DNA of 64,000 nt from GCF_988242995.1 NZ_OZ547043.1; one strand, 5' to 3'. Counted from the first letter of the stretch, positions 2,816 to 44,253 are shown. Translations and numbers: made by a program. The notes: a model not told the origin generated them from the letters alone.

Positions 2816-2824
2816 TTATATTTT

Positions 2825-2860
2825 AAAGAAATCTGTCTTTATGGCAGATTTCTTTAATCT
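2825..2860 (+). terminator. putative hairpin terminator after yeeN
   Basis: Inverted repeat aaagaaatctg / cagatttcttt immediately after the yeeN stop. Confidence 0.4.
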
Positions 2861-3269
2861 CATAGAATCCTTATAAAAAATATAATGTTTAACTCATCAT
2901 ATTGCTTATAAAAAATCCCCGTCCCCAGAGAAATAATATTTATTAAAATGGCAGGTCTTCTTTTTCTGATTACCGAAGACAAAGTGGCAATTACGTATAG
3001 TTTCCCGATAAAGACGCGACAGCTACATCCCGCATAAGGCATTTTTCTCTTTATCTTTGTACGGTACTTCATGGAACAGAATTTTTGACCTTGTGAATCG
3101 TGATGTCTGTTGGGGAGGGGCAATTTGCTCACTGAAGCGTGAGACTCAATTAAGCGCACGAAACACAGAAATCAAAAAACCCGGTCACTTTTTTACAAGG
3201 TAACCGGGTAAAAATAATTTTTATTTTTTAACTGCTTTGAGACTCATAGAGATGTCTCAAAACTAAAAT

Positions 3270-3345
3270 TTGGCTCCTCTGACTGGACTCGAACCAGTGA
3301 CATACGGATTAACAGTCCGCCGTTCTACCGACTGAACTACAGAGG
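3270..3345 (-). tRNA. asnW: tRNA-Asn
   Basis: 76 nt, exact reverse complement of the tRNA-Asn sequence found at 5095..5170 and 7504..7579; ends CCA. Confidence 0.95.
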
Positions 3346-3446
3346 AATCGTGAGAACGAGGCGAATATTAGCGATGCCCACCCACAATGTCAAAGCCTGT
3401 TTTTTAAATTTGAAATCGTTTGCTGAAATAATCTGCATTTTGTCGT

Positions 3447-5094: not shown

Positions 5095-5170
5095 TCCTCT
5101 GTAGTTCAGTCGGTAGAACGGCGGACTGTTAATCCGTATGTCACTGGTTCGAGTCCAGTCAGAGGAGCCA
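5095..5170 (+). tRNA. asnU: tRNA-Asn
   Basis: TCCTCTGTAGTTCAGTCGGTAGAACGGCGGACTGTTAATCCGTATGTCACTGGTTCGAGTCCAGTCAGAGGAGCCA, GTT anticodon loop. Confidence 0.95.
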
Positions 5171-6158: not shown

Positions 6159-6259
6159 GGTAAACTCCGGGCAGTTCAGATATCCCGTTATTGTTAAAGT
6201 CTAACGCCCGGCATAACAAATAATAAAAACCCGCATCTTATTCCATCCCGATATAACGC

Positions 6260-7177
6260 TTAGCTCACCAATTGCCACTGCCTTTTTTCCATCACTGGAG
6301 AACTAATCACTGACATTAACAACTCTTTCACTGCCTGTGCCTGTGGCGATAAGTTCGCTCTGGCGGGTAAATTTAATGACAAAGAGAGACTCATTGAAGG
6401 CGTGGTAATGCGTGACATCCACCCATTTACTGCGCCACATAACGAACGCGCGGCCGATTCGGGTAATACTGCAACGCCCATGCCGCTGGCAATCGCTGCG
6501 GTAAGCGTGGCAATAGACTCAATTTCACCAATAACTTTTGCCGTGAGTCGCCGTAGGGAAAAAGCCTCATCAACACGAAGTCTAACAGCGCTGTAATCAC
6601 TGGGGAGAAAGAGGTTCATTTTCGCAATAGCATTCACATCAACGCTTTGCCCCGGGCAATCTTGAGTTCCTACCAGAAAAAGATCTTCTTTCAGCAAAGC
6701 CTGACTGGATACACCAGCCACAGGGGAATGCTCATAAATCACCGCCATATCGAGTTGGTGATTTATCAATTTTTCGTTAAGCACTGCACCACTATTTTCA
6801 TGAAGATAGATAACGATCTCCGGAAATTCAGCGCGAACCGCCTGTAATAAGGGCATGGTGATGGATGACGCAGCGGTTCCTGGTGCAAAGCCAATCGAGA
6901 CTTGCCCCGATAATGCCTGACCAACGTTATGCACCGCCAGTTGGGCCTGTTCACACTGACGTAAAATGGCCCGCGCATGGGTATAGAGAATTTTTCCGGC
7001 GTCTGTTGGCGTAACGCCCCGCTTTGTACGGATCAAAAGTTGTTGATTTAACTCACCTTCCAGTGTGGCAACCTGCTGGCTGAGCGCTGGTTGTGCGATA
7101 TGCAATACTTCAGCAGCCTGGGTCAGGCTACCAATATCTACAATTTTTACGAAGTATTTCAGGCGTCTGAAGTTCAT
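6260..7177 (-). CDS. nac: LysR-family nitrogen assimilation regulator Nac
   Basis: ORF 6260..7207; start placed at MNFRRLKYFVKIVDIGSLTQAAEVLHIAQPALSQQV (305 aa). Confidence 0.9.
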   Translation of the reverse strand: MNFRRLKYFVKIVDIGSLTQAAEVLHIAQPALSQQVATLEGELNQQLLIRTKRGVTPTDAGKILYTHARAILRQCEQAQLAVHNVGQALSGQVSIGFAPGTAASSITMPLLQAVRAEFPEIVIYLHENSGAVLNEKLINHQLDMAVIYEHSPVAGVSSQALLKEDLFLVGTQDCPGQSVDVNAIAKMNLFLPSDYSAVRLRVDEAFSLRRLTAKVIGEIESIATLTAAIASGMGVAVLPESAARSLCGAVNGWMSRITTPSMSLSLSLNLPARANLSPQAQAVKELLMSVISSPVMEKRQWQLVS

Positions 7178-7503
7178 GTTGCCTCCGGTTTTTAAGAATC
7201 GGCCCAAGTGCCGCCATTACTTACAACCAGAAAGCAAGATGCTTGCCAGTTCTATTTTGGCGTTGATGCGCAAGCTAACCAACTGTCAAATAAAAGATTA
7301 TGATAGATTCGTCATTGGCCCTTTTTATCAGCAGTCGCATTCACCTGCCCTATAAAAGGAGGGTATGCACCACGATGGTTCATTACACAATAAGATTGAA
7401 AGCTCACCACTTTGTTGAAATTGGCAGCAAACAAACAAAAAAATACATTTCACCCTTTGACATCACCATGCACTGCCATTAATATGCGCCCCGTTCACAC
7501 GAT

Positions 7504-7579
7504 TCCTCTGTAGTTCAGTCGGTAGAACGGCGGACTGTTAATCCGTATGTCACTGGTTCGAGTCCAGTCAGAGGAGCCA
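7504..7579 (+). tRNA. asnV: tRNA-Asn
   Basis: 76 nt identical to asnU copy. Confidence 0.95.
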
Positions 7580-7587
7580 AATTCAAA

Positions 7588-7615
7588 AAAAGCCTGCTTT
7601 CGAGCAGGCTTTTTA
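7588..7615 (+). terminator. rho-independent terminator after asnV
   Basis: aaagcctgct / agcaggcttt hairpin followed by T-run. Confidence 0.6.
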
Positions 7616-7635
7616 CTTTCTAATTACCAACGCTC

Positions 7636-8568
7636 TTAAAACATCTGTCTTGAACCAGAACTAATTTGCACAGGCATTCCCGATCGACGTTGCAACGCAG
7701 CATTTGCGCGATTTACATCAACTTCTTGCCCGTTGATAAACGCCCGCAAAGATGGGGTTACCGGCAATGGCACTTTTCGGTCAGACTCATATTCTGCACG
7801 ATTGCGCGACAGCGGCTCATGAACTTCCAGCCACTTTGAACCATCCGGTTCCGTTGTGTATTTCACTGGCTGATCAATAATTTGTACACGAGTGCCTACA
7901 GGAACATTATCAAACAGATATTTGATATCGTCATTGCGCAGACGAATACAGCCCTGACTTACCCGGAGCCCAATACCAAAATTGGCATTGGTACCGTGGA
8001 TGGCATACAACCTGCCAATATAAATCGCGTACAGCCCCATGGGGTTATCGGGCCCCGCAGGAACAAATGCGGGCAAACTCTCCCCTCGTTTCGCATATTC
8101 GCGCCGGGTGTTCGGCGTTGGCGTCCAGGTTGGTGCTTCTTGTTTACGTTCAACGGTAGTCACCCAGTTACGCGGGGTTTCTCGCCCAGCCTGGCCGATA
8201 CCAATAGGAAAGACTTCCACTGTGTTACTGTCTGGCGGATAGTAATAAAGACGCATTTCAGCGACGTTAACCACAATCCCTTTACGAACAGTGGCGGGCA
8301 AAATCAGTTGCTGCGGAATGGTGAGTTGTGAGCCAGGCTTCGGCAAAAAAACATCAGCGCCCGGATTCGCTTCCAGCATATTACTTAACCCTTGCCCGTA
8401 TTGTGCGGCAAAAGTCTCCAGCGGCTGAGTATTGTGATCAGGAACAGTTACAGTAAGCGACTGCCCCACTAAACGGCTACCCTCTGGAGGTAATGGATAA
8501 GTTACCGCCAGGCTATTTTGGCTGGCAAAAAGCAGAGCAAATGAGCAAAGAATATTTACACGACGCAT
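7636..8568 (-). CDS. ldtA: L,D-transpeptidase (YkuD/ErfK family)
   Basis: 310 aa with signal peptide ([21 protein letters not shown]) and YkuD-type catalytic region (HGT...GC). Confidence 0.85.
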
Positions 8569-8632
8569 CATGTCCCTTTCCTAAGTCGCGAATACTATCC
8601 GATAAGTATAGCTTTTATCAGACTTTTCGTTT

Positions 8633-11009: not shown

Positions 11010-12779
11010 ACCGACTCCTGATTCAAATGTATGATGGTATTCATTGAACAGAACAATGGATCCCCCACCGTTGCTGACCGCAAAACATTTACGCGATTAA
11101 TACTGCGCGTAATATAATTAAAAATCCAGCATTCTCAATCCATTACGAAATAAGATGGCATTACGGAATAGCCAGACTTTCTCGTGTTAACGTCCGACAA
11201 AATGCGTCATTGACAGCGGTTTCTGTGGATTGACACATTTCATTCAGATAATGAATTAATGCTACTGCCGGACCAACCAGCAAACGGGCATTGTGTTCTG
11301 AAATCCAGGCTATTGATTCAACGTCAGCGACAGATCTGCGCTGTAAAAGAACTTGTAAAACAACGCAATAGAATTATCCGGAATGGTGGCGACTATGCAC
11401 TAGAACACCACAATTTCGCTCTCTCGGTAAGGCACTGTCACAGCATTCAACAGAATGTGACTTGCCAGATTTATTAGCGCCACCAGATGTTTAACCGGGT
11501 AACCACGACCCAGTCGGGGATATATTCCATCTTCTCGCTGACATCATCAAGAATAAAAAGGTTTATCACACTCAGAGCAACGTTCTTCAGCAGGCGGGAT
11601 AATTCTTCAACATTTAGAAGATGTGTTATTAAAGGCATACAAACTGGACGTATTGTATTTTCTTTTGGTGGTTGACCTAAGGTAGCAGTTTATCCTGATG
11701 CGCTGAGATTTCTGTAATATCTACGTCAACATTCTCCTCGAATAGAAAATGCAGCCCCGGCAAGTGATTCACATTTTTTAACAAAACGTTGTTAGCGTGC
11801 CATTTTCAGAAGCTCTCCAAGAAAGCGAATTCTTTTCTCAAATTCTGCATTCTCAGACACAGCTTTCTACTCCATGGCAATGGCCCAAATACGAAGTTGC
11901 TCAGGATCATTAGTGGTGCTGAGAAGTTAAATAACCATGCGGAGTACCACTCGTCATCACGTATTTATATATCATGAAGCTATTGTTGTGTTTTGTACAT
12001 CAGTAGATGTATTCTGATATACTCCTTTTGCTAGACATAACCTTTCACCTGCTTGCAAAGCTTCTGTGTTCTGACATTGCCAAATTGTTGCAATTCTGTA
12101 TCCAGCCTTCTTTCAGTCATAGCTTCGGGCCGCGATAAGACTCACTGATCTGACCCTGATTCCTCTTGCAGACTTTATAGACCAATTAAAATGCAGTTTC
12201 TGCAGGTCAACGTCTGACCATCATTGTCATCACTCTGGCCATTAGAGTAACCTTCTGCATTCATCCTTTTGTAAAAAGTTTATAGACTGGCCCCCTGAAT
12301 CTCCAGACAACCAATATCACTTAAATAAGTGATAGTCCTGATACAAGTTTTTAGAGTAGTCATTAGTGAACAGATAATTGTTAACTTAGAACCAGTAAAA
12401 TGCAAACGACGCACCACGCTGGGAAAATCGCTGCTATTCAGCAGAGTTTTGTACCGAGAATTGTGGCCAGCCACTTATTGCTCTCGCGTAAGCAGGTATC
12501 CCCATCGTTTACCAGTCCAGCACATCTTGTGGTCAGGCAGAAGAAGAGCAAACTGTTACTGGACTCACTGCATGCATGGTGGAGAAAAATGCCACGCTAT
12601 CCAAAAATCCAGACTGGGAGAATGGTTCAGCTGTGTACTGAATCAGTGGGGCGCACTCTGTTATTACAGTGTTGACGGTCAGGCGGAGGCAGACATAATG
12701 CCGCGGAAAAAGCCCTTTGTGCCATCTGTCTCGGAAATAAAAACTCTTATGACCTTTGTCAAATATTGAGCCCAAAAAG

Positions 12780-14186
12780 ACCTTACGCAGCTCCGGGAGC
12801 TTCGTTATATCGCGGATTAAAGAACCTGAAACAGTCAGACTGTATCTTGGATTTTACAAACTCTTATTCGGGGATTTTAGCCCCATGACGATTTACGCAG
12901 TGAGCTGGCCTCTTTCTATATGCAGGTATTGGCGCATTCTGACCTCCTGAATTCTTTTACGAGGATCACTCATTCCGTGTCTGACTGCTTCAGGGTTTAA
13001 TTTTGCTTCTGCTGACTGAATGATGATTGGGCAGCAAGTGCAATATCCCACATAAATCCAGTCAACTCACGAGCCACCGCCGTAATGGCTACTTGTGATT
13101 TTTTCCCTTTTGCTGTCAGACTTCGGTAACGAGAACACAATCGTTGTTGAGCTTTCCATGCAATATCTTTGGAATATTGTGTTACAGAATCCGGTCGGTA
13201 ATATATAAGCCATGCACCAACTTTTGCAGGTGTACGATAAGACCAGGCGGCTTCGTAAAGCAGACGTCTCAGTTCGCTGTTTCCAACTTTTGTTATTCCC
13301 CTGGGACGAATGCTGTTTCCACTGGAATATTCCCCTGGAACCAGTCCCAGAAAAGCCATGAGTTGTTTGGGACTGGAAAATCGTGAAAAATCACCCAGTT
13401 CAGCAACCAGGGTTATTGCGGTTAGCTGACCAACACCTTTAAGGGCCTGTAACTGGCAGACCAGATTGCACAGAGACCACTCAGGTAACAGGCGGGATAT
13501 TTCCTGGTCGAGTTGAAGTATGCGATCTTCAATCTGCTCCAGACTCTGACAATAGTGTTGAAAAGCAATCTGTTGAGATGGCTGACTAAATGATTGATTG
13601 GCTAACCAGGTTCGATGTTTGCCGGTCCAGTGCTTCCCTGCATAACGTTTGTCTGTTCGCAATAGCATGCTCAGAATTCGCTGTCGGGCAACTCTGCTGT
13701 CTCGTTTAGCTGCTGCACGGGCTCTGATTAGATCCCGCATAGCTTCATGAGTCAGGTCAGGGATCCAGACAGGGGTAAGTTCACCAGCCCGCAGTAACCT
13801 GGCAAGAGAAATTGCGTCCCGATGATCATTTTTGATTCTGTCTGTCGGTGATTTTGGTATCCGGGAAGGGGCAATAACCTGGCATTTTATATTCATCGCT
13901 GTGAGTTGATGATATAGCCCAAAACCACAGGGGCCAGCCTCATAGCAGGAAAGAATGTTTCCGTAAAGTCCCTGCAATTTCTGAAATAATCGACGTACAG
14001 CCTGGGCTTCGTTGTTAATCGTACCATAATAACGAACTTCGCCAAGCCGTTCAGGTGCAGCAATAGCAACCGCCAACGTTTCTTTATGTACATCCAGCCC
14101 GATGTAAGCTGCAATATTTTCCGAATGCATAATGACCTCCTCTGGAATATCCCACCAATGCTATAGTGAGTATATAAAGGTCATAC
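12780..14186 (-). mobile_element. IS110-family insertion sequence (boundaries approximate, 3' end not determinable by eye)
   Basis: Transposase 12997..14130; upstream end abuts a truncated IS66 tnpC remnant at about 14187; no terminal inverted repeats expected for this family. Confidence 0.4.
12997..14130 (-). CDS. IS110-family transposase (DEDD/RuvC-like)
   Basis: 377 aa; N-terminal YIGLDVHKETLAVAI motif typical of IS110-family transposases; RBS GAGGAGG upstream. Confidence 0.8.
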   Translation of the reverse strand: MHSENIAAYIGLDVHKETLAVAIAAPERLGEVRYYGTINNEAQAVRRLFQKLQGLYGNILSCYEAGPCGFGLYHQLTAMNIKCQVIAPSRIPKSPTDRIKNDHRDAISLARLLRAGELTPVWIPDLTHEAMRDLIRARAAAKRDSRVARQRILSMLLRTDKRYAGKHWTGKHRTWLANQSFSQPSQQIAFQHYCQSLEQIEDRILQLDQEISRLLPEWSLCNLVCQLQALKGVGQLTAITLVAELGDFSRFSSPKQLMAFLGLVPGEYSSGNSIRPRGITKVGNSELRRLLYEAAWSYRTPAKVGAWLIYYRPDSVTQYSKDIAWKAQQRLCSRYRSLTAKGKKSQVAITAVARELTGFMWDIALAAQSSFSQQKQN

Positions 14187-14189
14187 CAT

Positions 14190-14412
14190 CTTTATGTTCT
14201 TCGGCGGCGAGCGCAGTGCACTGTTGTATGGGCTTATCGGCACCTGCCGTCTGAACGACATTGATCCGGAAGCGTATCTGCGCCATATCCTGAGCGTACT
14301 GCCGGAATAACCTTCCAACCGTATTGATGAACTCCTGCCATGGAACGTAGTTCTCACCAATAAATAAGCATCAATATGATTCTCCATTAACGCTTACCTT
14401 TTCTCAGGCTAT
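14190..14412 (+). mobile_element. truncated IS66-family 3' end (tnpC C-terminal remnant plus terminal repeat), diverged
   Basis: Translates to FFGGERSALLYGLIGTCRLNDIDPEAYLRHILSVLPE and PSNRIDELLPWNVVLTNK, matching the C-terminus of TnpC at 23289..24902; ends with degenerate IS66 terminal repeat ...cgcttac. Confidence 0.6.
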
Positions 14413-18957: not shown

Positions 18958-20600
18958 GATTTTCATGCCAGTGGACTCATTACCCTCCGCCTAAGTAGTT
19001 CAAGTCCGGCTCGACCATACATCTGGCGTATCAGCACCTTCAGGCGATTTACATGACCTTCGACAACACCAGTACTCCAGCGACTGCTGATTGCCTCACA
19101 TATAGCCGCAGCATCAGCTTCCATCCCCGCAGCTACGCACCGAAGTTCTGCTGAGCCGCTTTCGTGGACCCGAGTGAACCAGCTGCTTAGCTGTGATTTA
19201 TTTTAGGTTTTCAGAATACGGTAGAACTCGAGTACCAGTTGCTGCGCTATTTTCAACTCCGGTTCTTTTTCACACATCAGACTAATAAATCGGAAAGCAT
19301 AATTTTCTTCACCCCTGATTATTCTCCAGGGCATCAACCAGCGGCTTACCCGGGACACTGAAGGAAGTCTTGCGGCAGTAGTAACCGGTGGGATCCAGCC
19401 TTTACGCCATTTGGCAACAGCATCCCTGACGATGGTTTCACTGCCTGTAACCCCCCTGGCCACCATTTCCCGCCATATCCGGCCGGAGTTATAATTACCA
19501 CATTCTCGTTGCTCTTTTAACCACTCCCTCCATGGGTCCAGAAGCCCTCGCTTTGGAGGCCTAGTTGACATTTCAGGGAATGTTCCTGAACCCACCCAGC
19601 GACTGACTGTCACTCGCGACAGGCCTGTAATACGGGATATTTCCCTGAAACTACATCCCTTGTTATGCAGGGCCATAACCTCTGTCCAACGCTGATGCCG
19701 TTTTTTGCGGATGTGCTGTTTAAGGCGTTCCAGACGACGGAGCGATGCTACAGGCACAGATATTTCTGGCTCAGGTGATTTCTTCAGTGATAACTCTCTG
19801 ACAACAAGACGTATCAGAGGCATATGTCTGTACATCATTCGTTCAGGCTCATCACCAATATTTTTTAGCAGGTGCCATCGATCGGCCACCTGTCTGGCCT
19901 GAGGTGCACCTTCACGTGCTGCTGTCGCATAGACTCCACTGCGATCACGCGAGACAACCTGTATTTCCGGATATTTTCTGAACCAGGTCGCCAGCGTACG
20001 CTGATCACGGCCGGGAAGCAGGACGAGGGGACGGTGAGTATCAAGATTGACTATTAACATACCGCAGCAGTGGCCCCGATGCCACGCCCACTCATCAATA
20101 CCGACATGAGGCGCGCCTGACTGTTTCGTCTCCGGGGTATTGATAACCCTGCGAAGAAGAGTATCAGCACTGCAACGGAGACCCGCTGCCGTTGCAGCCC
20201 GTTTTCCAGCCTCACCTCCAGCTATTAATCCCAGTTGACGTTGTAAATTTTGTAACGCCTGTGAAGACTGCTGGTGTGAACCGGCGAAGGGAGCAAGCGA
20301 CTCGGCAAAAATTTTACGTGAACAAGCCGGGTTACGGCAGTACCAGTGGCGGACGGAAAATACAAGCCATAGCGTCTGCCCTGAGCAGGGTAGATGCTGT
20401 ATCCGGCGCCGACGACAACTATGAACAGAGTCGCTACGCTTAAAGCATTCAGGACATTGTGCTGTTTTGCGTTTTCCGTGGAGATGGAGGGTTATACCGT
20501 CAGAGCTAATAATTTGTCGACTGCATCGCCATCCGCAAGGTAACTGTAGAAGTGTCTTAAGAGAGTGCATTGCGTTGCCCATAACTTAAAACAGCTTAGA
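18958..20600 (-). mobile_element. ISL3-family element with disrupted transposase (boundaries approximate)
   Basis: Transposase reading frame broken near 19200; no terminal repeats identified by eye. Confidence 0.4.
19203..20582 (-). CDS. ISL3-family-like transposase (N-terminal and central part)
   Basis: 459-aa ORF with Cys-rich zinc-finger region, GIDEWAWHRGH...LIVNLDTHRPLVLL DDE-like core and VADRWHLLKN; the conserved ISL3 C-terminal motif (STGVVEGHVNRLKVLIRQMYGRAGLELLRRRV) lies in another frame at 18960..19200. Confidence 0.55.
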   Translation of the reverse strand: MGNAMHSLKTLLQLPCGWRCSRQIISSDGITLHLHGKRKTAQCPECFKRSDSVHSCRRRRIQHLPCSGQTLWLVFSVRHWYCRNPACSRKIFAESLAPFAGSHQQSSQALQNLQRQLGLIAGGEAGKRAATAAGLRCSADTLLRRVINTPETKQSGAPHVGIDEWAWHRGHCCGMLIVNLDTHRPLVLLPGRDQRTLATWFRKYPEIQVVSRDRSGVYATAAREGAPQARQVADRWHLLKNIGDEPERMMYRHMPLIRLVVRELSLKKSPEPEISVPVASLRRLERLKQHIRKKRHQRWTEVMALHNKGCSFREISRITGLSRVTVSRWVGSGTFPEMSTRPPKRGLLDPWREWLKEQRECGNYNSGRIWREMVARGVTGSETIVRDAVAKWRKGWIPPVTTAARLPSVSRVSRWLMPWRIIRGEENYAFRFISLMCEKEPELKIAQQLVLEFYRILKT

Positions 20601-20865
20601 TCCTTGTTCGCCAGAAAGTTTCATCCATTTTCTTCCACCCAGGTTGCGGAAGAACCACTTTTCATCCGTCGTTGACAGATGTGAAGTATGCGGGAGAAAA
20701 AGTGAATATCTAACTGTAATAACTCAGACCGGTACGAGTACTCGGAACGTCTACAATCATTCAGGGCAAAGTGCTAAAATTTCTCTATCCCGGGATGCCC
20801 CTACCAACGCAGCACTCCCGGAGATATCATTACAGCTCTGCAACTGATTTCCGCGACTGAACCGC

Positions 20866-21276
20866 TCAGTTCCTATCCTTCCAGTTGCCTTCCTGCAGCC
20901 CCCCCTCCCTGCTGTATACCCCGGTACCACAACGCGGGCAGCACTTTTCTCCTTCATAATCTTCGTCACACATCACACAAAACCACTTTCTCACCTTCAC
21001 CGTATAATCCGGAACCGTCATACCCTGCAGATGCAAACGACGGGCCTCTTTCTCTGCCGGGTCAAGCCAGGTGCATCGCAGCAGGATTTTCTCAGCGACA
21101 GTCATCTGGTCATGTTCAAACCACGGTGGTTGTCCGTCATTGCCCCGCTGAAGTGTTAACGGGCATCCACAGGACACACAGCACAAAACGTCCTGGCGGT
21201 TGTGCTTCGCTGCTTCTTTCGCCGTAACAAAATGGCCTTTGCTGTCATTCGCCATATAACAGTTCAGAATTCGCAT
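20866..21276 (-). CDS. Cys-rich zinc-ribbon protein (paralog 2)
   Basis: Start at MRILNCYMANDSKGH preceded by AGGAGG; CxxC...PWFEH...CxxC...CxxC pattern shared with upstream gene. Confidence 0.5.
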   Translation of the reverse strand: MRILNCYMANDSKGHFVTAKEAAKHNRQDVLCCVSCGCPLTLQRGNDGQPPWFEHDQMTVAEKILLRCTWLDPAEKEARRLHLQGMTVPDYTVKVRKWFCVMCDEDYEGEKCCPRCGTGVYSREGGLQEGNWKDRN

Positions 21277-21671
21277 ATTTCCTCCTGAGTTGTCCGGGGA
21301 ATACTGAATCCTCCGGTCTGGCAGTGTGTGCAGTACCGCTCCCCATAATAATCGTGGTGACATTGTCTGCAGTGCCAGCTGGCTTTACGCACCACGGGTA
21401 AGGCATCCGGTACGAATTGCTGCAGACGTTTAATCAACTGTATTTCTCTGCGCTCCGGCCTGACATAAGGGCACTGTTGACCGTGCTCTGTCAGCCTGTC
21501 GTCAGTGTGTTCAAACCAGGGAAGTTCAGTGTCGTATTGCGGATGGTATCTGAGTGCACTGCCACACAAGTGGCAGGTGTAGTTAGCATAAGGTGCGGCC
21601 TGTGCAGTACGGGCGCCCGTCAGACGTCCGTTGCCATCAAGAGCGATAAAGGATTTTGCGTACATAGTCAT
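21264..21671 (-). CDS. Cys-rich zinc-ribbon protein (paralog 1)
   Basis: 135 aa; CHLCGSAL...PWFEH...CRQCHHDYYGERYCTHCQTG; overlaps the downstream paralog by 13 nt. Confidence 0.5.
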   Translation of the reverse strand: MTMYAKSFIALDGNGRLTGARTAQAAPYANYTCHLCGSALRYHPQYDTELPWFEHTDDRLTEHGQQCPYVRPERREIQLIKRLQQFVPDALPVVRKASWHCRQCHHDYYGERYCTHCQTGGFSIPRTTQEEICEF

Positions 21672-21924
21672 ATTCCTCAGCCGCCAGACGACACGCAGGC
21701 AACAGCCGTCCCGGTACGGGCAGCGTGGTCAGGGTGTGAATGGCGGTTCAGTTAAAATCTGGACTGGAGTTTGGGTAAAGCAGGCTGGTTGCTGTTACAG
21801 CACTGTGGTTGTCACACAATGGAACACTGACGTAAAAAACAGTCAGTGGGCGAGTGGATACATCGTTGCCGCCAGACAACAACCCATACTTTTGGTTTGC
21901 CGGATATTGGCGCGCCAGTCGTGC

Positions 21925-22494
21925 TCAACTCCGGCTACAGCCAAAATTGCGCTCACCGGTGCAGTGAGCTTTGGTATGTTCCTTCGCCAGATAGTCAGCA
22001 CGTTCCAGCACCTGCTGAAAGCCAGTGTCATCATCGCGTTCCAGCCACACCGCCGGCCAGGCCGGAAAATGCACCAGCGTGGCATGGCACCCGACATCCA
22101 CTCCCAGGGCACTGCACCACGCCTGTTTAATCATCCCGGCCAGTGATCCCGGAGCACGGTAATCACCGGCACGACACCAGGTATCCCGGTTAACCAGCAG
22201 CATCAGGTGATAGTGTTTTTTACCTTTGCACTCCCCAAACTCCCGGGCCCAGACGTAATGCAGGGTGGTGGGATGCACGCGTTTACCTTCCCGATGCTTA
22301 CGTTTCTGGTAAGCGTCGATTCGGGCTTTCAGGGCATTGATGAAGCGGGATATCACAGCTGCGTCCGTTGCTGCCGGTACATCCGGGAAACGCAGGTCAA
22401 CCCGCAATGCCGTCAGGCGGGGATGAACATTCAGTGCGTGCCGCACCGTCTCACGAATACGTTGCTGCCAGAAGGGGTTGTATTTGTAGGTCAT
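21925..22494 (-). CDS. YfjJ/YagK-like (inovirus Gp2-type) prophage protein
   Basis: Start at MTYKYNPFWQQRIRETV with GGAG RBS; resembles YagK/YfjJ family of CP4-type prophages (recognition from memory). Confidence 0.55.
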   Translation of the reverse strand: MTYKYNPFWQQRIRETVRHALNVHPRLTALRVDLRFPDVPAATDAAVISRFINALKARIDAYQKRKHREGKRVHPTTLHYVWAREFGECKGKKHYHLMLLVNRDTWCRAGDYRAPGSLAGMIKQAWCSALGVDVGCHATLVHFPAWPAVWLERDDDTGFQQVLERADYLAKEHTKAHCTGERNFGCSRS

Positions 22495-22690
22495 GGTTAA
22501 ATCTCCGTATGGTTCATACGGAATAGCCACGTCGTAAAAAATGCGCAGAGTCCCTGAAGTGACCTCCGGCAGGACACTGTCTCAGGCACTCTGTGATAAC
22601 CCGAACGGTCGTCTCCGGACTGACGGTTGAATTTTCAGCGTTGTTTTTTTAATGTAAAAAACCGGTTACGGGTAAGGCTGTGAGGAGGGA

Positions 22691-22894
22691 GTGATGGTGA
22701 TACGCAAAAAGAAGTGCAGGGACTGTGGAAACGCGATTACTCATAATACAGTGTGTTGCCCGTATTGTGGTTCTGTCGACCCCTTCGGCTATTACCGGAA
22801 TACAGACCGTATCGTTACCATACTGCTGGCACTGATTATTGTGGTCCTGCTGACTACTGTCAGCGTCAGTGTGTATATACTGTGTAGCTGGTGA
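22691..22894 (+). CDS. small zinc-ribbon protein with C-terminal transmembrane helix
   Basis: 67 aa; CRDCGN...CPYCGS followed by hydrophobic ILLALIIVVLLTTVSVSVYIL. Confidence 0.4.
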   Translation: MMVIRKKKCRDCGNAITHNTVCCPYCGSVDPFGYYRNTDRIVTILLALIIVVLLTTVSVSVYILCSW

Positions 22895-23250
22895 GATAAC
22901 GGTTCATGTATCCCCTGAGCTGACAGTGTACCGGGTATATTAAGCGTAACCGACAGGTTCTCCTTCATACCATATTAAATTTTTCCAGGTATTGCCGCTG
23001 CCTTATTTCGTCCCATACAGGAAAACTCGTCTGGGTTTCTGACAAATACGCGAAACTCACAGCCCCTCAATATCAACCACACGCTGTAAGCCGGTAATAC
23101 CTGAAAATCAGCCTATTACCGCCCGCGCCTCCGTTACCGAACGCTCAGGTGACCAGACTGAAGCCCAGCACGCACTCGTAAAATTTGCGGTCAGTTCCGT
23201 CAGTCAGTGGGCAACCGCAGAGTTACGGGCTTCCAGGTCCACAGGAGTGA

Positions 23251-23258
23251 GTCTATAA
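23251..23258. repeat. target-site duplication (GTCTATAA) of IS66 copy 1, left
   Basis: Identical octamer at 25791..25798 directly abutting the other IS end. Confidence 0.8.
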
Positions 23259-23288
23259 GTAAGCGTCAACGGAGCACCGTATTGACGC

Positions 23289-24902
23289 TTATTTATTGGT
23301 GAGTACTACGTTCCATGGCAGGAGTTCGCCAACTCGGTTGGAAGGCCATTCCGGCAGTACGCTCAGAATATGGCGCAGATACGCTTCCGGATCGATACCG
23401 TTCAGACGGCAGGTGCCGATCAGCCCGTACAGCAGTGCACCACGCTCGCCGCCGTGATCGCTACCGAAGAACACGTAATTTTTCTTTCCGAGACAGACTG
23501 CACGAAGCGCTCTTTCCGCTGTGTTATTGTCCGCCTCCGCCAGACCGTCATCACAGAAGTTGCACAACGCAACCCAGTGCTTCCTGATATACCGGAACGC
23601 ATCTCTCAGACGGCATTTTTTCGATAACGTGTGTTCTTTCTCCTGCATCAGCTTATACAGGGAAGTCAGTAGCGGTTTACTCTGCATTTGCCTGACCGCC
23701 AGGCGTTCAGACACCGGCAACCCGCGTATTTCGTGCTCAATGGCGTACAGTTCACCGATTAGTTTCAGTGCTTCTTCCGCCGTCGCGCTTTTGGTACTGA
23801 TATATACATCGTGGATTTTGCGCCGTGCATGAGCCCAGCATCCTGCTTCCGTCAACGCGCCGCCTTCACGTTCGGCACTGAACAGCCGATCGTAACCTGC
23901 GAACGCATCTGCCTGCAGGATACCCCGGAAGGGACGAAGGTGTTGCTCCGGATGTTTACCCTGATGGTCCGGTGAGTAGGCGAACCAGACCGCCGGAGGT
24001 TCTGGCGAACCGGCATTTCGGTCATCCCGGACATACGTCCAGATATATCCTGTTTTCGCCTTCTTCCTGCCCGGTGCCAGTACTTTTACTGGTGTGTCAT
24101 CAGTGTGAACCTTGCGGGTGTTCATCACATAACTGTACAGGGCATCATTCAGCGGAGTCATTAACTGGCAGCACGCATCAACCCAGTTGGAGAGTAAGGC
24201 ACGGCTCAGTTCGACACCCTGGCGGGCAAAGATTTCACTCTGACGATACAGTGGCAGATGTTCGCAGTATTTTCCCGTTAACACGCGGGCAAGTAACTCC
24301 GGGCCCGCGATACCACGCTCTATCGGACGGGATGGTGCCGGTGCTTCAACGATGCAGTCACATTTTGTACAGGCTTTTTTTACCCGTTCTGTGCGGATCA
24401 CTTTCAGGGCGCTGCTCACCAGTTCCAGTTGTTCTGCACTGACTTCCCCCAGATAATCCAGCTCACCGCCACACTCCGGGCAACAGCTTTCTTCAGGCTC
24501 CAGGCGGTTTATTTCGCGGGGCAGAAGCTCCGGTAACGGACGACGATGGCGTGACTGTCGCAACTGGCGGGGAACCTGCGGGTCATCCTCTCGCCCACTG
24601 TAACGATCGCTGTCCTGTTCGCGTTGCTTCAGCAGGGCCTCAGCCTGTTCAACTTCACGACGCAGTTTTTCAGAACGGGTACCGAACAGCATCCGGCGCA
24701 GTTTTTCTATCTGAGCCCGCAGATGTTCTATTTCCCGTTCATCTTCTTCGATCTTTTCTTCGGCACGTGCCAGCACAGAACGCAGGAAGGCCTCCGTCTC
24801 TTCAACCAGACTCAGTTGTTGGTCTTTCTGACGGAGGGCTTCAGCCTGCTCAGAGAGCAACCTTTCCAGCTCTGCGATGCGAATGAGGTATTTCTGACTC
24901 AT
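23289..24902 (-). CDS. IS66-family transposase TnpC
   Basis: 537 aa; N-terminal coiled coil, CPECGG zinc motif, DDE region; C-terminus LYGLIGTCRLNGIDPEAYLRHILSVLPEWPSNRVGELLPWNVVLTNK. Confidence 0.85.
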   Translation of the reverse strand: MSQKYLIRIAELERLLSEQAEALRQKDQQLSLVEETEAFLRSVLARAEEKIEEDEREIEHLRAQIEKLRRMLFGTRSEKLRREVEQAEALLKQREQDSDRYSGREDDPQVPRQLRQSRHRRPLPELLPREINRLEPEESCCPECGGELDYLGEVSAEQLELVSSALKVIRTERVKKACTKCDCIVEAPAPSRPIERGIAGPELLARVLTGKYCEHLPLYRQSEIFARQGVELSRALLSNWVDACCQLMTPLNDALYSYVMNTRKVHTDDTPVKVLAPGRKKAKTGYIWTYVRDDRNAGSPEPPAVWFAYSPDHQGKHPEQHLRPFRGILQADAFAGYDRLFSAEREGGALTEAGCWAHARRKIHDVYISTKSATAEEALKLIGELYAIEHEIRGLPVSERLAVRQMQSKPLLTSLYKLMQEKEHTLSKKCRLRDAFRYIRKHWVALCNFCDDGLAEADNNTAERALRAVCLGKKNYVFFGSDHGGERGALLYGLIGTCRLNGIDPEAYLRHILSVLPEWPSNRVGELLPWNVVLTNK

Positions 24903-24932
24903 GACCGTTTTTATAATGCGGTCAGGAGTTTT

Positions 24933-25283
24933 TTACAACATTGTCAGTGAGTTAAGGCGGGATGTTTTTGGCTGACGCCAGTCCAGCTTATCGAGGAGCA
25001 TTACCAGTTGCGAACGGGTAATGGATACCTTGCCGTCACGTACCGCAGGCCAGATAAACTGGCCTTCCTCCAGGCGTTTGGTGAACAGGCACAGACCATC
25101 AGCATCAGCCCAAAGAATTTTAACGGTGTCACCCCGTCGGCCACGGAAGATAAACAGGTGGCCGGAGAAGGGATTATCATTCAGCACATGTTGTACCTGT
25201 TCTCCCAGTCCGTTGAAGGATTTACGCATATCGGTAACGCCGGCAACGAGCCAGATACGGGTACCTGATGGGAGTGAAATCAT
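24933..25283 (-). CDS. IS66 Orf2 (TnpB)
   Basis: 116 aa MISLPSGTRIWLVAGVTDMRKSFNGLGEQV..., typical IS66 orf2. Confidence 0.85.
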   Translation of the reverse strand: MISLPSGTRIWLVAGVTDMRKSFNGLGEQVQHVLNDNPFSGHLFIFRGRRGDTVKILWADADGLCLFTKRLEEGQFIWPAVRDGKVSITRSQLVMLLDKLDWRQPKTSRLNSLTML

Positions 25284-25705
25284 CTTCCCCTCCCGCTCAG
25301 TTCGCGGATCAACACCGTGAGCAGCTCTGGCGATGGATTTTCCAGCGTCATGTTACCGTGACGGAACTCCACCTTGCAGGAACTGGCACTGACTCTGGTC
25401 TGAGTGGAAGTGGATAAAGACGGCGCAATGGCCGCCACAGGTTTTTTCTGCTCATCCGGCGTTATTTCTACAGGTAATAATTCAACGCCAGTGTCAGAAG
25501 AGGTCGTTACCGGAAGACGCCGCGAAACACGCCCTTCGTTCTGCCAGAGCCTGAGCCATTTGAAAATAACATTATCATTGACGCCATTTTCACGTGCAAT
25601 CTGTGCAACACAAGCTCCAGGTTGTGATGCCAGTTCCACCATACGAAGTTTGAATTCATTCGAATAGTTTTTACGAGGTTCTTTTCGCCAGTCCTGTAAT
25701 TCCAT
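25280..25705 (-). CDS. IS66 Orf1 (TnpA, HTH)
   Basis: 141 aa; overlaps orf2 start by 4 nt. Confidence 0.8.
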   Translation of the reverse strand: MELQDWRKEPRKNYSNEFKLRMVELASQPGACVAQIARENGVNDNVIFKWLRLWQNEGRVSRRLPVTTSSDTGVELLPVEITPDEQKKPVAAIAPSLSTSTQTRVSASSCKVEFRHGNMTLENPSPELLTVLIRELSGRGR

Positions 25706-25790
25706 ACTTAGATGTCCGTCTATATCAGATGGGCGTCTAAGTTACCAATTTTCGTCTGATGGCTACATACGGCGGTCAGTTTACGCTTAC

Positions 25791-25798
25791 GTCTATAA
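25791..25798. repeat. target-site duplication (GTCTATAA) of IS66 copy 1, right
   Basis: Identical octamer at 23251..23258. Confidence 0.8.
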
Positions 25799-26560
25799 CG
25801 CGTGTGGGAAATCATTTTTTCTGGCGTTGACAGAACGCCTTACGGGCTGCTACTTACCCGGTGTCCCGCAATACAGCCTTAGTGTTCCGTTATCGGGGAT
25901 CCGGACGCACCGCAACAACCGGGGAAGTATTTCTGGTTAGAGCTGTGTCAAGAGGGATTTCTCAGCCCCTCACTCACCGGCTCAGTCTCAGGGCAGAAGC
26001 ATTAATACACTCAGTTCATGTCTTATACAGGAATGGGCATAGGGGGAGCTGGCGTGTCACTGCTGATTTTACGCATCAGCGTTCATGTATCTGCACTCTG
26101 ATACAGAATGCTTCACAGCGCTCTGTTACCGGAGAGATTTACTCTCTTAGGTTATTCTGGCAAATCCTTTACGTTACTCTCTGATGACTTCTTATATTTA
26201 TAATACCAATCAGACAACCTTATCCCATCGGTGATATCAGTCTCCTGCTCGCCAGGAACGGGCTGACTCACTGTAACCACCTCCGAAAACAACTCTGCAA
26301 TTATCAGAACGCCTGCTTCTCTCCCTGTCCTCACGAAAACTATCCCCTCTTTATCGCGCGTGCGTGCGGAAGCATCTTTTCGCAACACCCCCCTCCGGGA
26401 TTCCGCTACGGCTCTGCCATCGCAATCCCCCCGTTTATCTCCGGACAGCCACATTCCCGATTATTTTTTACGTTTCTCCCCGGTTGTTATGCCGGTGAAG
26501 GTGGCGCGCTGTTTTCATGACCACACCGGCTGGTTTAACAACATCCGGAGGAACATTCTC

Positions 26561-26767
26561 ATGGCTACCCCAGTTTCGCTGATGGATGACCAGATGGTCG
26601 ACATGGCGTTTATCACTCAACTGACCGGCCTAACCGATAAGTGGTTTGACAAACTCATCAAAGATGGGGGCTTTCCTGCGCCCATCAAAATGGGGCGCAG
26701 CTCCCGCTGGCTGAAAAGTGAAGTGGAAGCCTGGCTGCAGGCGCGTATTGCACAGTCCCGTCCGTAA
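26561..26767 (+). CDS. AlpA-family prophage transcriptional regulator
   Basis: 68 aa from MATPVSLMDDQMVDMAFITQLTGLTDKWFDKLIKDGGFPAPIKMGRSSRWLKSEVEAWL; GGAGG RBS 10 nt upstream. Confidence 0.65.
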   Translation: MATPVSLMDDQMVDMAFITQLTGLTDKWFDKLIKDGGFPAPIKMGRSSRWLKSEVEAWLQARIAQSRP

Positions 26768-26860
26768 TTTTTAACCACTAACCCTTCGCCCACAGCAGAC
26801 GCAATCTCCGGCCTGCCGGCGGCGCTCTGCTGCCTGTTATCCCCCGTGAGGAATATGAAA

Positions 26861-27463
26861 ATGAAACAACAGTATCAGACCCGTTACGAGCTGCTCCATG
26901 AAAACTACCAGAAATGGCTGACCGGCTTCACCCGGCACGCCGTATCATGGGGCGTGTGTCATCCGAATATCTACTATTTCCATAATCTGACGCCCGGGTG
27001 GGTGTCATTCAATGGCGAAAAACCGGAGATTGCCATCGTTCCCCAGAGTCTGCACCGGCTGATTTATGGTCCGGACAAACGGAGCTCCCCGTCCCTAGAT
27101 GATGATCTGGTGGTGAATTTATGCACCAGCGAACACCTGCTGGTTCATCATCCGATGCTGGAAGGGATCCTGCTGTCTGAATGTGAACGCCTGAAGCAAC
27201 ATTCTCTGGCAAACAAACTGATCAGCCTCTTCCGTCAGTTTGGCGGCACGGAGTTACGTCTCAAACTGGTCTGGCTCTGCTGGCTTGACTTAATGACCGG
27301 AAACAGCCTTGACGACTGGACGAAAAACCTGAAACACAAATCAGAAAAAGATCTGGAGCAATGGATCATTGCACGTCAGGGTCAGAGTGAACCACTGACA
27401 AATCTGATGGATCAGTACGTGCTTATGGCATACCGTACATCGGTTGATGCCGCTCACAGTTGA
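26861..27463 (+). CDS. hypothetical protein
   Basis: About 200 aa ORF downstream of alpA-like gene with GAGGAA RBS; no recognisable motif. Confidence 0.4.
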   Translation: MKQQYQTRYELLHENYQKWLTGFTRHAVSWGVCHPNIYYFHNLTPGWVSFNGEKPEIAIVPQSLHRLIYGPDKRSSPSLDDDLVVNLCTSEHLLVHHPMLEGILLSECERLKQHSLANKLISLFRQFGGTELRLKLVWLCWLDLMTGNSLDDWTKNLKHKSEKDLEQWIIARQGQSEPLTNLMDQYVLMAYRTSVDAAHS

Positions 27464-28372
27464 TGTCTGAGAACCACAGGGCTGGCAGCAGAAAACCAGC
27501 CCTGTGGTAAAATACAGTAATAGCGGCGTACATCAGGCACGCCGCTCACTCGTCCACAGATCATATACGTCATTATACTGCGCGATAACGGAGGGCTTCA
27601 GCACCCGGTCATTTCTGAGCGGGTATGAATACCATTGATGATGCGAAGCAGCCACGGGCAGAAACGTTCTTCACAACCAGGTGCCTCCATCTTCACTGCA
27701 GTCTGAATGTGCCGGCTTGTTATCCACCAGAAATGGTATGCTCCGGTACATGCATACCCCGGAGACTATAAACGCACTGAATCATAGCCTCCCACCTCAG
27801 CAGGAGGCAGTCAGCTTTCAGGCGGAAAAACGTTGCAGTTAAAGATCGTGAGAATCGCTGTTTCGTTGCATAGCAACCCGAACAGTTGTAGTGAAACATT
27901 TTACCTGCATCAGCACATGGTCAGGCGCCGTCTGTATGGCGTGGAATACTGATGTTTCGGCTGATGGCAAGCCTCATTCTCTGTGGAAACAGGGGCGCGC
28001 ATTAGCTTCTCAACCAGAGAGTGTCACAAAGACAAATATTGCTGAAAATCGCATTCATCGTTCAGGCGTGAATGCCCGGAGACAAAAGCCGCTGTCCACA
28101 CAGTCCCCCTCTGACCTGAACAAAAAGCATACACACAACAGGCTCACCTGACCCCGAAAAACCATAACTTCAGCAATACCAGTGACACCAGCACGTTACC
28201 TCAGTGCCACATCTTCAGACCGCGATCAATCTGAAATGTGACTATCGGGGCAATATCCCTGCTTTGTGGTACACGATAACCAGAAAACATCCCCTGAACC
28301 GCCAGCCAGAAAGACTGGCCACAAAAGGGGTAAGCTGAAATCGTTTATGGATTACATCGACATATGCCTGGC

Positions 28373-28380
28373 AGAGAATG
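28373..28380. repeat. target-site duplication (AGAGAATG) of IS66 copy 2, left
   Basis: Identical octamer at 30817..30824. Confidence 0.8.
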
Positions 28381-28421
28381 GTAAGCGTGCAGTGAGAACC
28401 GTATTGACGAAGTGAAGCTGG

Positions 28422-29990
28422 TCAGGCAGGCAGAGTAACCCGCCACGGGAGCAGAGCACCCACCCGGTTCACAGGCCAGTCGGCGATGACATCAAGTACA
28501 TGATGCAGATAGCGTTCCGGATCCACGCCGTTTAATTTGCACGTCCCGATAAGACTGTACAGTGACGCACCGCGCTCACCACCATGATCCGAGCCGAAGA
28601 ACAGCCAGTTTTTTCTCCCCAGACTGACCAGTCGTAGGGCGTTTTCGGCAATGTTATTATCCACCTCCACCCAGCCATCTTCTGCATAGCGGGTCAGCGC
28701 CGGCCACTGGTTCAGCGCATACCCGAACGCCTTCGCCAGTTCTGAGTGCCTTGAGAGGGTTTTCTGTTTCTCCCGCAGCCACCCCTCCAGTGACGCCAGC
28801 AGCGGCAGCACTTTTTGGTGCCGGACTGCCTGCCGTTCCTCTGCTCTTTTACCTCTGAGCTCCGACTCGATGGCATACAGCTCGCCGATCCGTTTCAGCG
28901 CCTCCTCCGTCAGGGCTGACGGGGTACGGACGTGAACATCGTGGATTTTTCGGCGGGCATGGGCCCAGCACGTGGCTTCCTTTATATGGCCGTCGCGGTA
29001 GAGCTCGTTGAACCCGGCGTAGGCATCAGCCTGCAGTACGCCACTGAAGCCTGCAAGATGGGTCTGAGGGTGGATACCTTTTCTGTCCGGGCTGTAAGCG
29101 AACCACACTGCGGGGGCCAGCGCTGATCCGGCGTTGCGGTCGTCTCGAACGTACGTCCATAAGCGCCCGGTCTTCGTCTTCTTATTGCCCGGCAACAGCA
29201 CCGGGACAGGCATATCGTCAGCATGGAGTTTGCCGTCGGTCAGGACATAGTGCTGAAGGGCTTCATCCAGCGGTGCCAGCAGACGACAACACGCATCCAC
29301 CCAGCCCGACAGTACAGAACGACTCAACACTACACCCTGGCGGGCATAGATCTCCGACTGGCGATACAGCGGTATGTGCTCTGCATACTTTGAGGTCAGC
29401 ACTCGGGCCAGCAGCCCCGGTCCGGCGATCCCCCGTTCGATGGGGCGCGAAGGAGCCGGGGCCTGAACGATGCGATCGCACCGACGGCAGGCATGCTTTT
29501 CACGGACTGTCCGGATAACCCGGAAGGCGCTGCGCATCAGCTCCAGCTGTTCGGCGGCATCCTCACCCAGGTAACTCAGCGAACCACCGCACTCCGGGCA
29601 ACACGGCTCAGTCGGCAGCAGCCGCTTCTCATCCCGTGGGAGTGACTCAGGGAACGGTTTGCGGGTGCGGGTCTGACGCAGCGGGCGCTGCACTGCCGGG
29701 TCATCCACCCGGCCGGTCAGCGTATCGCTTTCCTGCTGCAGCAGGTTCAGGTCAGCTTCCATTTGCGCGATACGGCGGGATACCTTTTCGGAACGACTGC
29801 CGAAGTTCATCCGGCGCAGCTTATCCAGTTGCGCCTGCAGATGGTCTATTTCGCGTTCCCGGTTGCTCAGCTTTTCCTGCAGGGCGTGGATCAACGCTTC
29901 CTGTTCGGCCAGGCGCTGTTTCAGCAGAAGGATGTCGTCAGAAGAGGTGTCGTTCATAAGCCTGTATTTTCCAGGCTTATTCTGCGACAA
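28422..29990 (-). CDS. IS66-family transposase TnpC
   Basis: 522 aa; same architecture as 23289..24902 but clearly diverged in sequence. Confidence 0.85.
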   Translation of the reverse strand: MSQNKPGKYRLMNDTSSDDILLLKQRLAEQEALIHALQEKLSNREREIDHLQAQLDKLRRMNFGSRSEKVSRRIAQMEADLNLLQQESDTLTGRVDDPAVQRPLRQTRTRKPFPESLPRDEKRLLPTEPCCPECGGSLSYLGEDAAEQLELMRSAFRVIRTVREKHACRRCDRIVQAPAPSRPIERGIAGPGLLARVLTSKYAEHIPLYRQSEIYARQGVVLSRSVLSGWVDACCRLLAPLDEALQHYVLTDGKLHADDMPVPVLLPGNKKTKTGRLWTYVRDDRNAGSALAPAVWFAYSPDRKGIHPQTHLAGFSGVLQADAYAGFNELYRDGHIKEATCWAHARRKIHDVHVRTPSALTEEALKRIGELYAIESELRGKRAEERQAVRHQKVLPLLASLEGWLREKQKTLSRHSELAKAFGYALNQWPALTRYAEDGWVEVDNNIAENALRLVSLGRKNWLFFGSDHGGERGASLYSLIGTCKLNGVDPERYLHHVLDVIADWPVNRVGALLPWRVTLPA

Positions 29991-30005
29991 CCAGGATAAA
30001 GAGCG

Positions 30006-30353
30006 CTACAACATGGTCAGGGATGTCAGTAACCGCTTTGGCTGTCGCCAGTCGATACCTTCCATCAGCATCGCCAGTTGCGCCGGCGTCAGGAACACTT
30101 TGCCATCGCGGGCTGAGGGCCAGGCGAAGCGACCACGTTCTAGTCGCTTTGTCAGCAGGCACAGACCATCGCCGGTGGACCAGAGCAGTTTTACCTGACT
30201 GCCGCTGCGTCCCCGGAAGATGAAGACGTGGCCGGACATCGGGTCATCTTTCAGCGCGGTCTGCACCTTTGCGGCGAGGCCATTGAAGCCGTTGCGCATA
30301 TCGGTGATACCGGCAACCAGCCAGATTTTTGTGCCTGCGGGAAGATTTATCAT
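30006..30353 (-). CDS. IS66 Orf2 (TnpB)
   Basis: 115 aa MINLPAGTKIWLVAGITDMRNGFNGLAAKV... Confidence 0.85.
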   Translation of the reverse strand: MINLPAGTKIWLVAGITDMRNGFNGLAAKVQTALKDDPMSGHVFIFRGRSGSQVKLLWSTGDGLCLLTKRLERGRFAWPSARDGKVFLTPAQLAMLMEGIDWRQPKRLLTSLTML

Positions 30354-30733
30354 ACAGGCCCCCGCATCAGTTCGCGCAGGACAGTGCTCATGAGTTCAGC
30401 AGAGGGATGAGTCAGTGTTATTTCTCCTCCCCGACATTTTATGTGGCAGGTAGCGGGAGGAGAGCAGGATGGTAGTTCGAAGGTTGGGAGAGAAGAGCCC
30501 GCCTGAAGCTGCACGGGTATCAGGGCAGGAAGCGACGATGAGTTTTTTCGGGGCCGACAGACCCGCCCTTCACGCTGCCAGAGCCTTATCCATTTAAAGA
30601 GCAGGTTATCATTGACGTCATGTTTCCGGGCCAGTGCGGCAATACTGCCTTCTTCTTCAAGAGCCAGCCTGACCAGTTCCATTTTGAATTCAGGGGAATA
30701 GTGTTTCCGGGGAAGTCTTTCTTTAGCGCGCAT
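30350..30733 (-). CDS. IS66 Orf1 (TnpA, HTH)
   Basis: 127 aa; overlaps orf2 by 4 nt. Confidence 0.8.
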   Translation of the reverse strand: MRAKERLPRKHYSPEFKMELVRLALEEEGSIAALARKHDVNDNLLFKWIRLWQREGRVCRPRKNSSSLPALIPVQLQAGSSLPTFELPSCSPPATCHIKCRGGEITLTHPSAELMSTVLRELMRGPV

Positions 30734-30816
30734 GAGGTGTCCACCTGCAAAATAAGTGGGTGCTTAAGTTACAGGATCCTGGATTCGGGACCAGACGGTA
30801 CTCAGACGACGCTTAC

Positions 30817-30824
30817 AGAGAATG
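30817..30824. repeat. target-site duplication (AGAGAATG) of IS66 copy 2, right
   Basis: Identical octamer at 28373..28380. Confidence 0.8.
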
Positions 30825-43145: not shown

Positions 43146-43519
43146 ATGAAAACATTACCTGTATTACCCGGGCAGGCGGCCAGTTCTCGCCCGTCTCCTG
43201 TTGAAATCTGGCAGATACTGCTGTCCCGACTGCTGGACCAGCACTATGGCCTCACACTGAATGACACACCTTTTGCCGATGAACGTGTGATTGAGCAGCA
43301 TATTGAGGCAGGCATTTCACTGTGTGATGCGGTGAACTTTCTCGTGGAAAAATACGCGCTGATGCTACCGACCAGCCGGGATTCAGCGCCTGTACCCGCT
43401 CTCAGTTAATAAACAGCATCGATATCCTCCGGGCTCGCAGGGCGACCGGCCTGATGACCCGCGACAATTACAGAACGGTAAATAACATTACCCTGGGTAA
43501 GTATCCGGAGGCGAAATGA
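43146..43519 (+). pseudogene. cbtA: CbtA (YeeV) toxin gene with frameshift
   Basis: N-terminal 73 aa typical of CbtA, then frame shifts ([19 protein letters not shown] stop); the expected C-terminus NSIDILRARRATGLMTRDNYRTVNNITLGKYPEAK is encoded in another frame ending at 43519. Confidence 0.7.
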
Positions 43520-44094: not shown

Positions 44095-44253
44095 GTAAGC
44101 GTCAACGGAGCACCGTATTGACGCTTATTTATTGGTGAGAACTACGTTCCATGGCAGGAGTTCGTCAACACGGTTGGAGGGCCATTCCGGCAGTATGCTC
44201 AGAATATGGCGCAGATACGCTTCCGGATCGATACCGTTCAGACGGCAGGTGCC
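44095..44253 (-). mobile_element. truncated IS66-family 3' end fragment (near-identical to end of IS66 copy 1)
   Basis: 159 bp matching 23259..23417 with a few mismatches; ends abruptly at 44253. Confidence 0.7.

Follow-up and report, generated by a model that had tools for sequence, protein, structure and literature searches.

Two IS66-family insertions with separate target duplications in a CP4-44-like island of an S88-like Escherichia coli chromosome

By comparing a 64-kb stretch of DNA (hereafter the window) with complete E. coli genomes we identified two different IS66-family elements that almost certainly arrived by two independent transposition insertions in a CP4-44-like island beside cobUST, on an E. 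coli S88-like chromosome. Both insertions are real. They are ordinary mobile DNA, already annotated in public genomes, and nothing about them departs from known biology. Over 31.6 kb the window and E. coli S88 share 99.88% identity, and the S88 annotation places both elements between cobUST and yeeA, in an island whose genes include those for inovirus Gp2-family, AlpA-like, GTPase and dynamin-family proteins, yeeS/yeeT and cbeA/cbtA. Several other IS66 remnants are present in the same island. S88 lacks the ISEc45 that the window carries at 12.3-14.2 kb, and strain E2 has this ISEc45 plus an extra IS3.

The first element (copy 1; 23259..25790, minus strand, 2532 bp) is abutted by the octamer GTCTATAA on its left (23251..23258) and again on its right (25791..25798). 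On the plus strand of the window this octamer occurs only twice, both times directly next to copy 1, and strains in which the site is empty have one octamer here. The terminal inverted repeats of copy 1 are imperfect, with 20 of 24 positions matching between GTAAGCGTCAACGGAGCACCGTAT on the tnpC side (23259..23282) and the repeat on the tnpA side (25767..25790), which ends in ...ACGCTTAC. Three genes, all on the minus strand, lie between them. The tnpC gene (23289..24902) encodes a 537-aa DDE transposase that aligns with Pfam PF03050 over profile positions 1-283 of 284 (E=1.5e-95) and scores 443 bits against the NCBIfam model NF033517, for which the cut-off is 180; the exact protein is present on 711 contigs. 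The 116-aa product of tnpB (24933..25283) is an accessory protein of the IS66 Orf2 type (PF05717, E=2.2e-36; NF033819), and that of tnpA (25280..25705) is a 141-aa helix-turn-helix accessory protein matching PF01527 and, above its cut-off, NF047595. The tnpA stop overlaps the tnpB start as ATGA (TCAT on the plus strand, 25280-25283). In E. coli S88 and MS7163, both of which we take to be ST95, the same site is occupied by an element 100% identical to copy 1, and other strains also have an identical element.

The second element (copy 2; 28381..30816, minus strand, 2436 bp) has a different octamer, AGAGAATG, on its left (28373..28380) and right (30817..30824), with a single octamer at the empty site. 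Its 22-nt inverted repeats, GTAAGCGTGCAGTGAGAACCGT on the tnpC side (28381..28402) and the corresponding stretch on the tnpA side (30795..30816), are likewise imperfect and match at 17 of 22 positions (77% complementary). Here tnpC (28422..29957, minus strand) encodes a 511-aa DDE transposase (WP_001000403.1) that matches PF03050 with E=1.3e-103 and NF033517 with 462 bits against the same cut-off of 180, and the exact protein is present on at least 1000 contigs. The 115-aa TnpB (30006..30353, minus strand) matches PF05717 (E=1.7e-38) and an NCBIfam model, and the 127-aa TnpA (30350..30733, minus strand) matches PF01527 and exceeds the cut-off of NF047595. Again tnpA and tnpB overlap as ATGA (TCAT on the plus strand, 30350-30353). 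Copy 2 is 100% identical to the element in S88, MS7163 and other strains. The annotation of one further strain, 4/2-1, gives the tnpC of its copy 2 as truncated.

The coordinates of both elements and the octamers at their ends, as given in a preliminary description of this DNA, proved exact to the base when read directly and indexed by script, and its account of two complete IS66-family elements in the same orientation holds. Each copy has intact tnpA, tnpB and tnpC, in that order, as three uninterrupted ORFs, and the genes of both lie on the minus strand. All four ends start with GTAAGCGT, the elements running from GTAAGCGT... on the left to ...ACGCTTAC on the right. The Pfam and NCBIfam matches are full-length. 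In both copies TnpA matches HTH_Tnp_1, TnpB matches TnpB_IS66, and TnpC carries a leucine zipper (PF13007, LZ_Tnp_IS66), a zinc finger (PF13005, zf-IS66), the DDE domain (PF03050, DDE_Tnp_IS66) and the IS66 C-terminal domain (PF13817); the NCBIfam models for IS66 TnpA, TnpB and transposase are all above their cut-offs. The two copies had also been described as diverged in sequence, and so they are. They share 60.8% nucleotide identity, and their proteins share 42% (TnpA), 65% (TnpB) and 61% (TnpC) amino-acid identity. With 61% nucleotide identity and differing RefSeq labels, copy 1 and copy 2 are clearly different members of the family.

Each element encodes TnpA with a helix-turn-helix, TnpB of the IS66 Orf2 type and the DDE transposase TnpC. 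From what is known of DDE transposases and of the IS66 family, TnpC, together with TnpA and TnpB, would bind the GTAAGCG-type ends, whose inverted repeats are imperfect and about 22-24 bp long. The target would then be cut in a stagger, 8 bp apart, and repair of the gaps would leave the 8-bp duplication. As the genome comparisons below show, copy 2 was the first to enter, in an older IS21 remnant that was already truncated; copy 1 followed in a narrow group of strains, where it inserted upstream of an AlpA-like gene, in the spacer.

The sites before insertion were reconstructed by deleting each element and one octamer, and the resulting 1200-bp sequences were compared with 5426 complete E. coli genomes, a check that the preliminary description had proposed. 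Each rebuilt site is present without interruption in other complete genomes of E. coli. Rebuilt site 1 gave one uninterrupted match at 100% identity, with 2292 genomes covering at least 80% of the query, and rebuilt site 2 gave one uninterrupted match at 99.9% identity, in 403 genomes. At base level, the alignments have a single octamer at either empty site and run across the junction without a gap. Since the rebuilt sites align gap-free, the true ends of the elements are fixed independently of the octamers, and the octamers directly abut these ends, in agreement with the termini as originally assigned.

These alignments also bear on whether one or both elements might be the product of recombination between IS66 copies at different loci, with octamers that match by chance. 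The other IS66 remnants in the island, and a mosaic element at site 1 in one strain, would be in keeping with such exchanges, but both 8-bp pairs are perfect, and for each element an 8/8 match at fixed positions would arise by chance with a probability of 1/65,536. Moreover, thousands of genomes are colinear with the rebuilt empty sites, so that both flanks of each element come from the same original site, which rules out an exchange between copies at separate sites. We therefore rejected an inter-element recombination product for the copies in the window and give this reading next to no credence. Since its insertion neither element has undergone recombination with a further copy or any other rearrangement. 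Simple insertion of each, as first described, is borne out by its own perfect 8-bp repeat, by the empty sites (in 2292 and 403 genomes) and by three states of the island found among strains. In strain E6474 the same island is present with both sites empty, in strain 4/2-1 site 1 is empty and copy 2 is present, and in S88, as in the window, both sites are occupied.

We inspected the two target sites for evidence that the elements had landed in DNA that was already degraded, as the preliminary description had suggested. This is shown for copy 2 only. Copy 2 splits an IS21-family istA pseudogene fragment (annotation of E6474), the left part of which lies at 28293..28380 on the plus strand; the remainder of the IS21 remnant (30825..31170, plus strand) continues the istA fragment up to about 31018 and then holds a C-terminal fragment of istB (31033-31170). 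In E6474, where the site is empty, the istA fragment is annotated 'IS21 family transposase, frameshifted, incomplete', and the istB fragment is annotated 'AAA family ATPase, missing N-terminus'. The NCBIfam matches of the remnant, to the IstB C-terminus (E=2.3e-6) and the IS21 transposase (E=0.007), are weak but consistent with this annotation, with which the translations of the remnant also accord. Thus copy 2 landed in an istA fragment that was already truncated and frameshifted before the insertion. At site 1 the description fits less well. The spacer that holds copy 1 is intergenic, measures about 1.1 kb and separates a hypothetical gene of 66 aa from the gene for an AlpA-like regulator, copy 1 being upstream of the latter, and two intact genes stand between the elements. 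These are the AlpA-like helix-turn-helix regulator gene itself (26561..26767, plus strand; PF05930; WP_000235214.1) and a gene for a 200-aa conserved hypothetical protein (26861..27463, plus strand; WP_000813432.1), for which no Pfam match was found. Both proteins are identical in strains with empty sites. With two intact conserved genes between the elements, the flanks are not uniformly dead. An Rfam search of positions 20000-34000 (E<=0.1) found no non-coding RNA family at either insertion.

The distribution of the two insertions gives their order. A 200-bp probe for the left junction of copy 1, at a coverage of at least 80%, matched 27 genomes: 20 with a single-piece match at 100%, one at 98% and six in which the match joined two separate pieces. 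Leaving out the joined matches gives a count of 21 genomes with copy 1 at site 1. A search with the whole 7.8-kb arrangement of both elements likewise gave 27 genomes, of which the same 21 have it entire; the remaining matches were again joins, as three opened loci confirmed. In these searches 6-7 matches were such joins, with an ISEc23 elsewhere in the island. The junction of copy 2 is found in about 273 genomes, a count that may include a few joined two-piece matches. All 21 genomes with copy 1 at site 1 also carry copy 2 and, because the distribution is nested in this way, copy 2 was inserted before copy 1, the later insertion occurring in a narrow set of isolates from humans and poultry. 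Both insertions had been called relatively recent. This suits copy 1, found in 21 of 5426 genomes and nearly identical, and is less fitting for copy 2, with its roughly 270 genomes from diverse strains. For copy 2 'recent' is a relative term, since either its age or a recombinational transfer of the island could account for its spread.

The same observations speak to the possibility that both elements and the 2.6 kb between them moved as one unit, as a composite transposon. As would be expected of such a structure, the two elements run in direct orientation with two intact genes enclosed between them (for the AlpA-like regulator and the 200-aa hypothetical protein). However, the outer octamers differ (GTCTATAA on one side, AGAGAATG on the other), each element instead having its own matching pair, and strains that lack both elements or have copy 2 only keep the intervening genes in place. 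In addition, at 61% identity between the elements, one transposase would be unlikely to serve both pairs of ends. A composite transposon was rejected on the grounds that the outer duplications are unlike and that intermediate states were found, and we regard it as extremely improbable; copy 1 and copy 2 appear not to have moved as a unit.

Two independent insertions having been established in this way, a separate matter is whether the elements are active. They may be inactive relics that only look intact, their distribution stemming from inheritance and transfer of the island rather than from ongoing mobility. A megablast of copy 1 against the S88 chromosome gave only three matches, as many as the full element and the two remnants in the window taken together, although this agreement is in number only, and the truncation annotated in the tnpC of copy 2 in strain 4/2-1 points the same way. 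Against this, the ORFs and ends of both copies are all intact, close relatives labelled ISEc23 occupy other positions of the same island in other strains, and ISEc43, with a direct repeat of 8 bp, has been reported as an insertion in the SGI1 island of an avian E. coli (PMC6531882). For transposition itself the evidence is indirect and comes from the occupied and empty sites across genomes. On balance we consider inactivity rather unlikely. The ISEc43/ISEc23 group has moved recently, though it is not these two copies that show it; judged by their sequences, both elements look as if they could still move.

The names of the elements are less firm than their family. In RefSeq the TnpC of copy 1 is labelled 'IS66-like element ISEc43 family transposase', and the assignment of copy 1 to the ISEc43 family follows this label only. 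Relatives labelled ISEc23 are 95-99% identical to copy 1 over its terminal 100 bp. The TnpC of copy 2 is called 'IS66 family transposase' only, the names of the protein clusters likewise read 'IS66 family', and the NCBIfam models for these proteins are at family level only. At an identity of at least 99%, copy 2 is found in just 494 records, most E. coli records (4875) being only 80-90% identical to it in nucleotide sequence. Copy 2 may therefore be either a separately named or an unnamed member of IS66; that it may be without a name of its own follows from the lack of a specific label together with the 80-90% identity of most E. coli relatives. In one strain the region matched by an 8-kb query has an 'ISEc22 family' transposase among its annotated features. 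In strain Z1323CEC0014 the element at site 1 is mosaic, which suggests patchwise gene conversion of elements that are fixed at a site; the mosaic structure and altered octamers there may, however, be assembly errors. Two modestly novel readings, that copy 2 has no ISfinder name of its own and that site-fixed elements are overwritten patchwise by gene conversion from related copies elsewhere in the genome, are put forward tentatively, and we think them somewhat doubtful as they stand.

The two insertions provide clean, datable markers and have little significance beyond bookkeeping. The insertion of copy 1 marks a small set of E. coli genomes, human extraintestinal and poultry, with S88 and MS7163 included, and that of copy 2 marks a much wider set of genomes. 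Together they illustrate how a decaying CP4-44-like island gains insertion sequences step by step, from the IS21 remnant to copy 2 and then to copy 1. Neither the mechanism nor the gene family is new.

In their organization the two elements resemble known systems closely. The IS66 family, reportedly defined on IS679 and IS66, comprises elements of 2.4-2.7 kb with the gene order tnpA-tnpB-tnpC, in which tnpA and tnpB overlap. Their TnpC is a DDE transposase that has a zinc-finger and a leucine-zipper region, their inverted repeats start GTAA and measure about 20-30 bp, and the duplication is of 8 bp. Both copies belong to this family, each showing every defining feature that we examined. Gene order, overlap, TnpC domains, repeats, duplication and length are seen in both, and in this comparison with IS679/IS66 no differences were found. 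Within the family, the ISEc43/ISEc23 group shares with copy 1 the layout of three genes, the GTAAGCG ends and the duplication of 8 bp, and again we found no differences in kind. The nearest named relatives of copy 2 are elements of the ISEc22/ISEc8 type, which are alike in family and layout, whereas the TnpC of copy 2 is without a specific IS name in RefSeq.

The CP4-44-like genomic island beside cobUST, which holds both IS66-family elements, is a landing ground used repeatedly by insertion sequences. One further arrival is an IS110-family element (RefSeq label ISEc45) at window 12284-14190, which appears to have inserted in an older, truncated IS66 remnant lying in the opposite orientation. 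On either side of it we find matches to copy 1 (the minus-strand element at 23259-25790, labelled ISEc43 family by RefSeq), at 12531-12743 with 71% and at 14202-14397 with 89% identity. ISEc45 is also present in strain E2 and others; in the closely related strain S88 the sequence at the position of 12284-14190 is different and shorter, and ISEc45 is not annotated there. A further old insertion-sequence relic of the island is a pseudogene of an ISL3-family transposase (about 18960-20580), which contains an internal stop. Strains that have the IS66 insertions and strains that lack them both keep it.

Additional insertions in this island were seen in other strains. ISEc23 is found there in the island's GTPase gene and inside copy 2, the second IS66-family element at 28381-30816 (positions in the strains' own loci: O145:H28 RM13516 9543-12046; SCPM-O-B-12142 6160-8576). 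In GPEC1035, GPEC1209 and GPEC1210, IS100 (istA/istB) is annotated inside the region matching window 23159-30924, and this region is longer by about 2 kb in these three strains.

In strain Z1323CEC0014 the insertion site of copy 1 is occupied by a mosaic IS66 element (1501-4290 of its own locus, corresponding to window 23159-25958). Here patches of clustered substitutions lie between long stretches identical to copy 1, and a 21-bp deletion is located close to the start of tnpC. On both sides the flanking sequence is identical, but each of the 8-bp target-site duplications has one change (left GTCTATAC, right GACTATAA). The pattern points to gene conversion in patches, with a related copy as donor, or else to assembly noise.

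A short way upstream of cobUST and the island there are three tRNA-Asn (GTT) genes (3271-3346, 5095-5170 and 7504-7579), none of which is occupied by an island within the window. The island also carries the cbtA toxin gene of a cbeA/cbtA pair (about 43146-43519); in S88 this gene is annotated as frameshifted. The far edge of the island, adjoining yoeF, has a 159-bp remnant of the tnpC-side end of an IS66 element (44095-44253), which lies in the same orientation as copy 1 and matches copy 1's own tnpC-side end with 97% identity. The two form a direct repeat, 20.8 kb apart, that could support deletion via recombination. This remnant is kept even in K-12.
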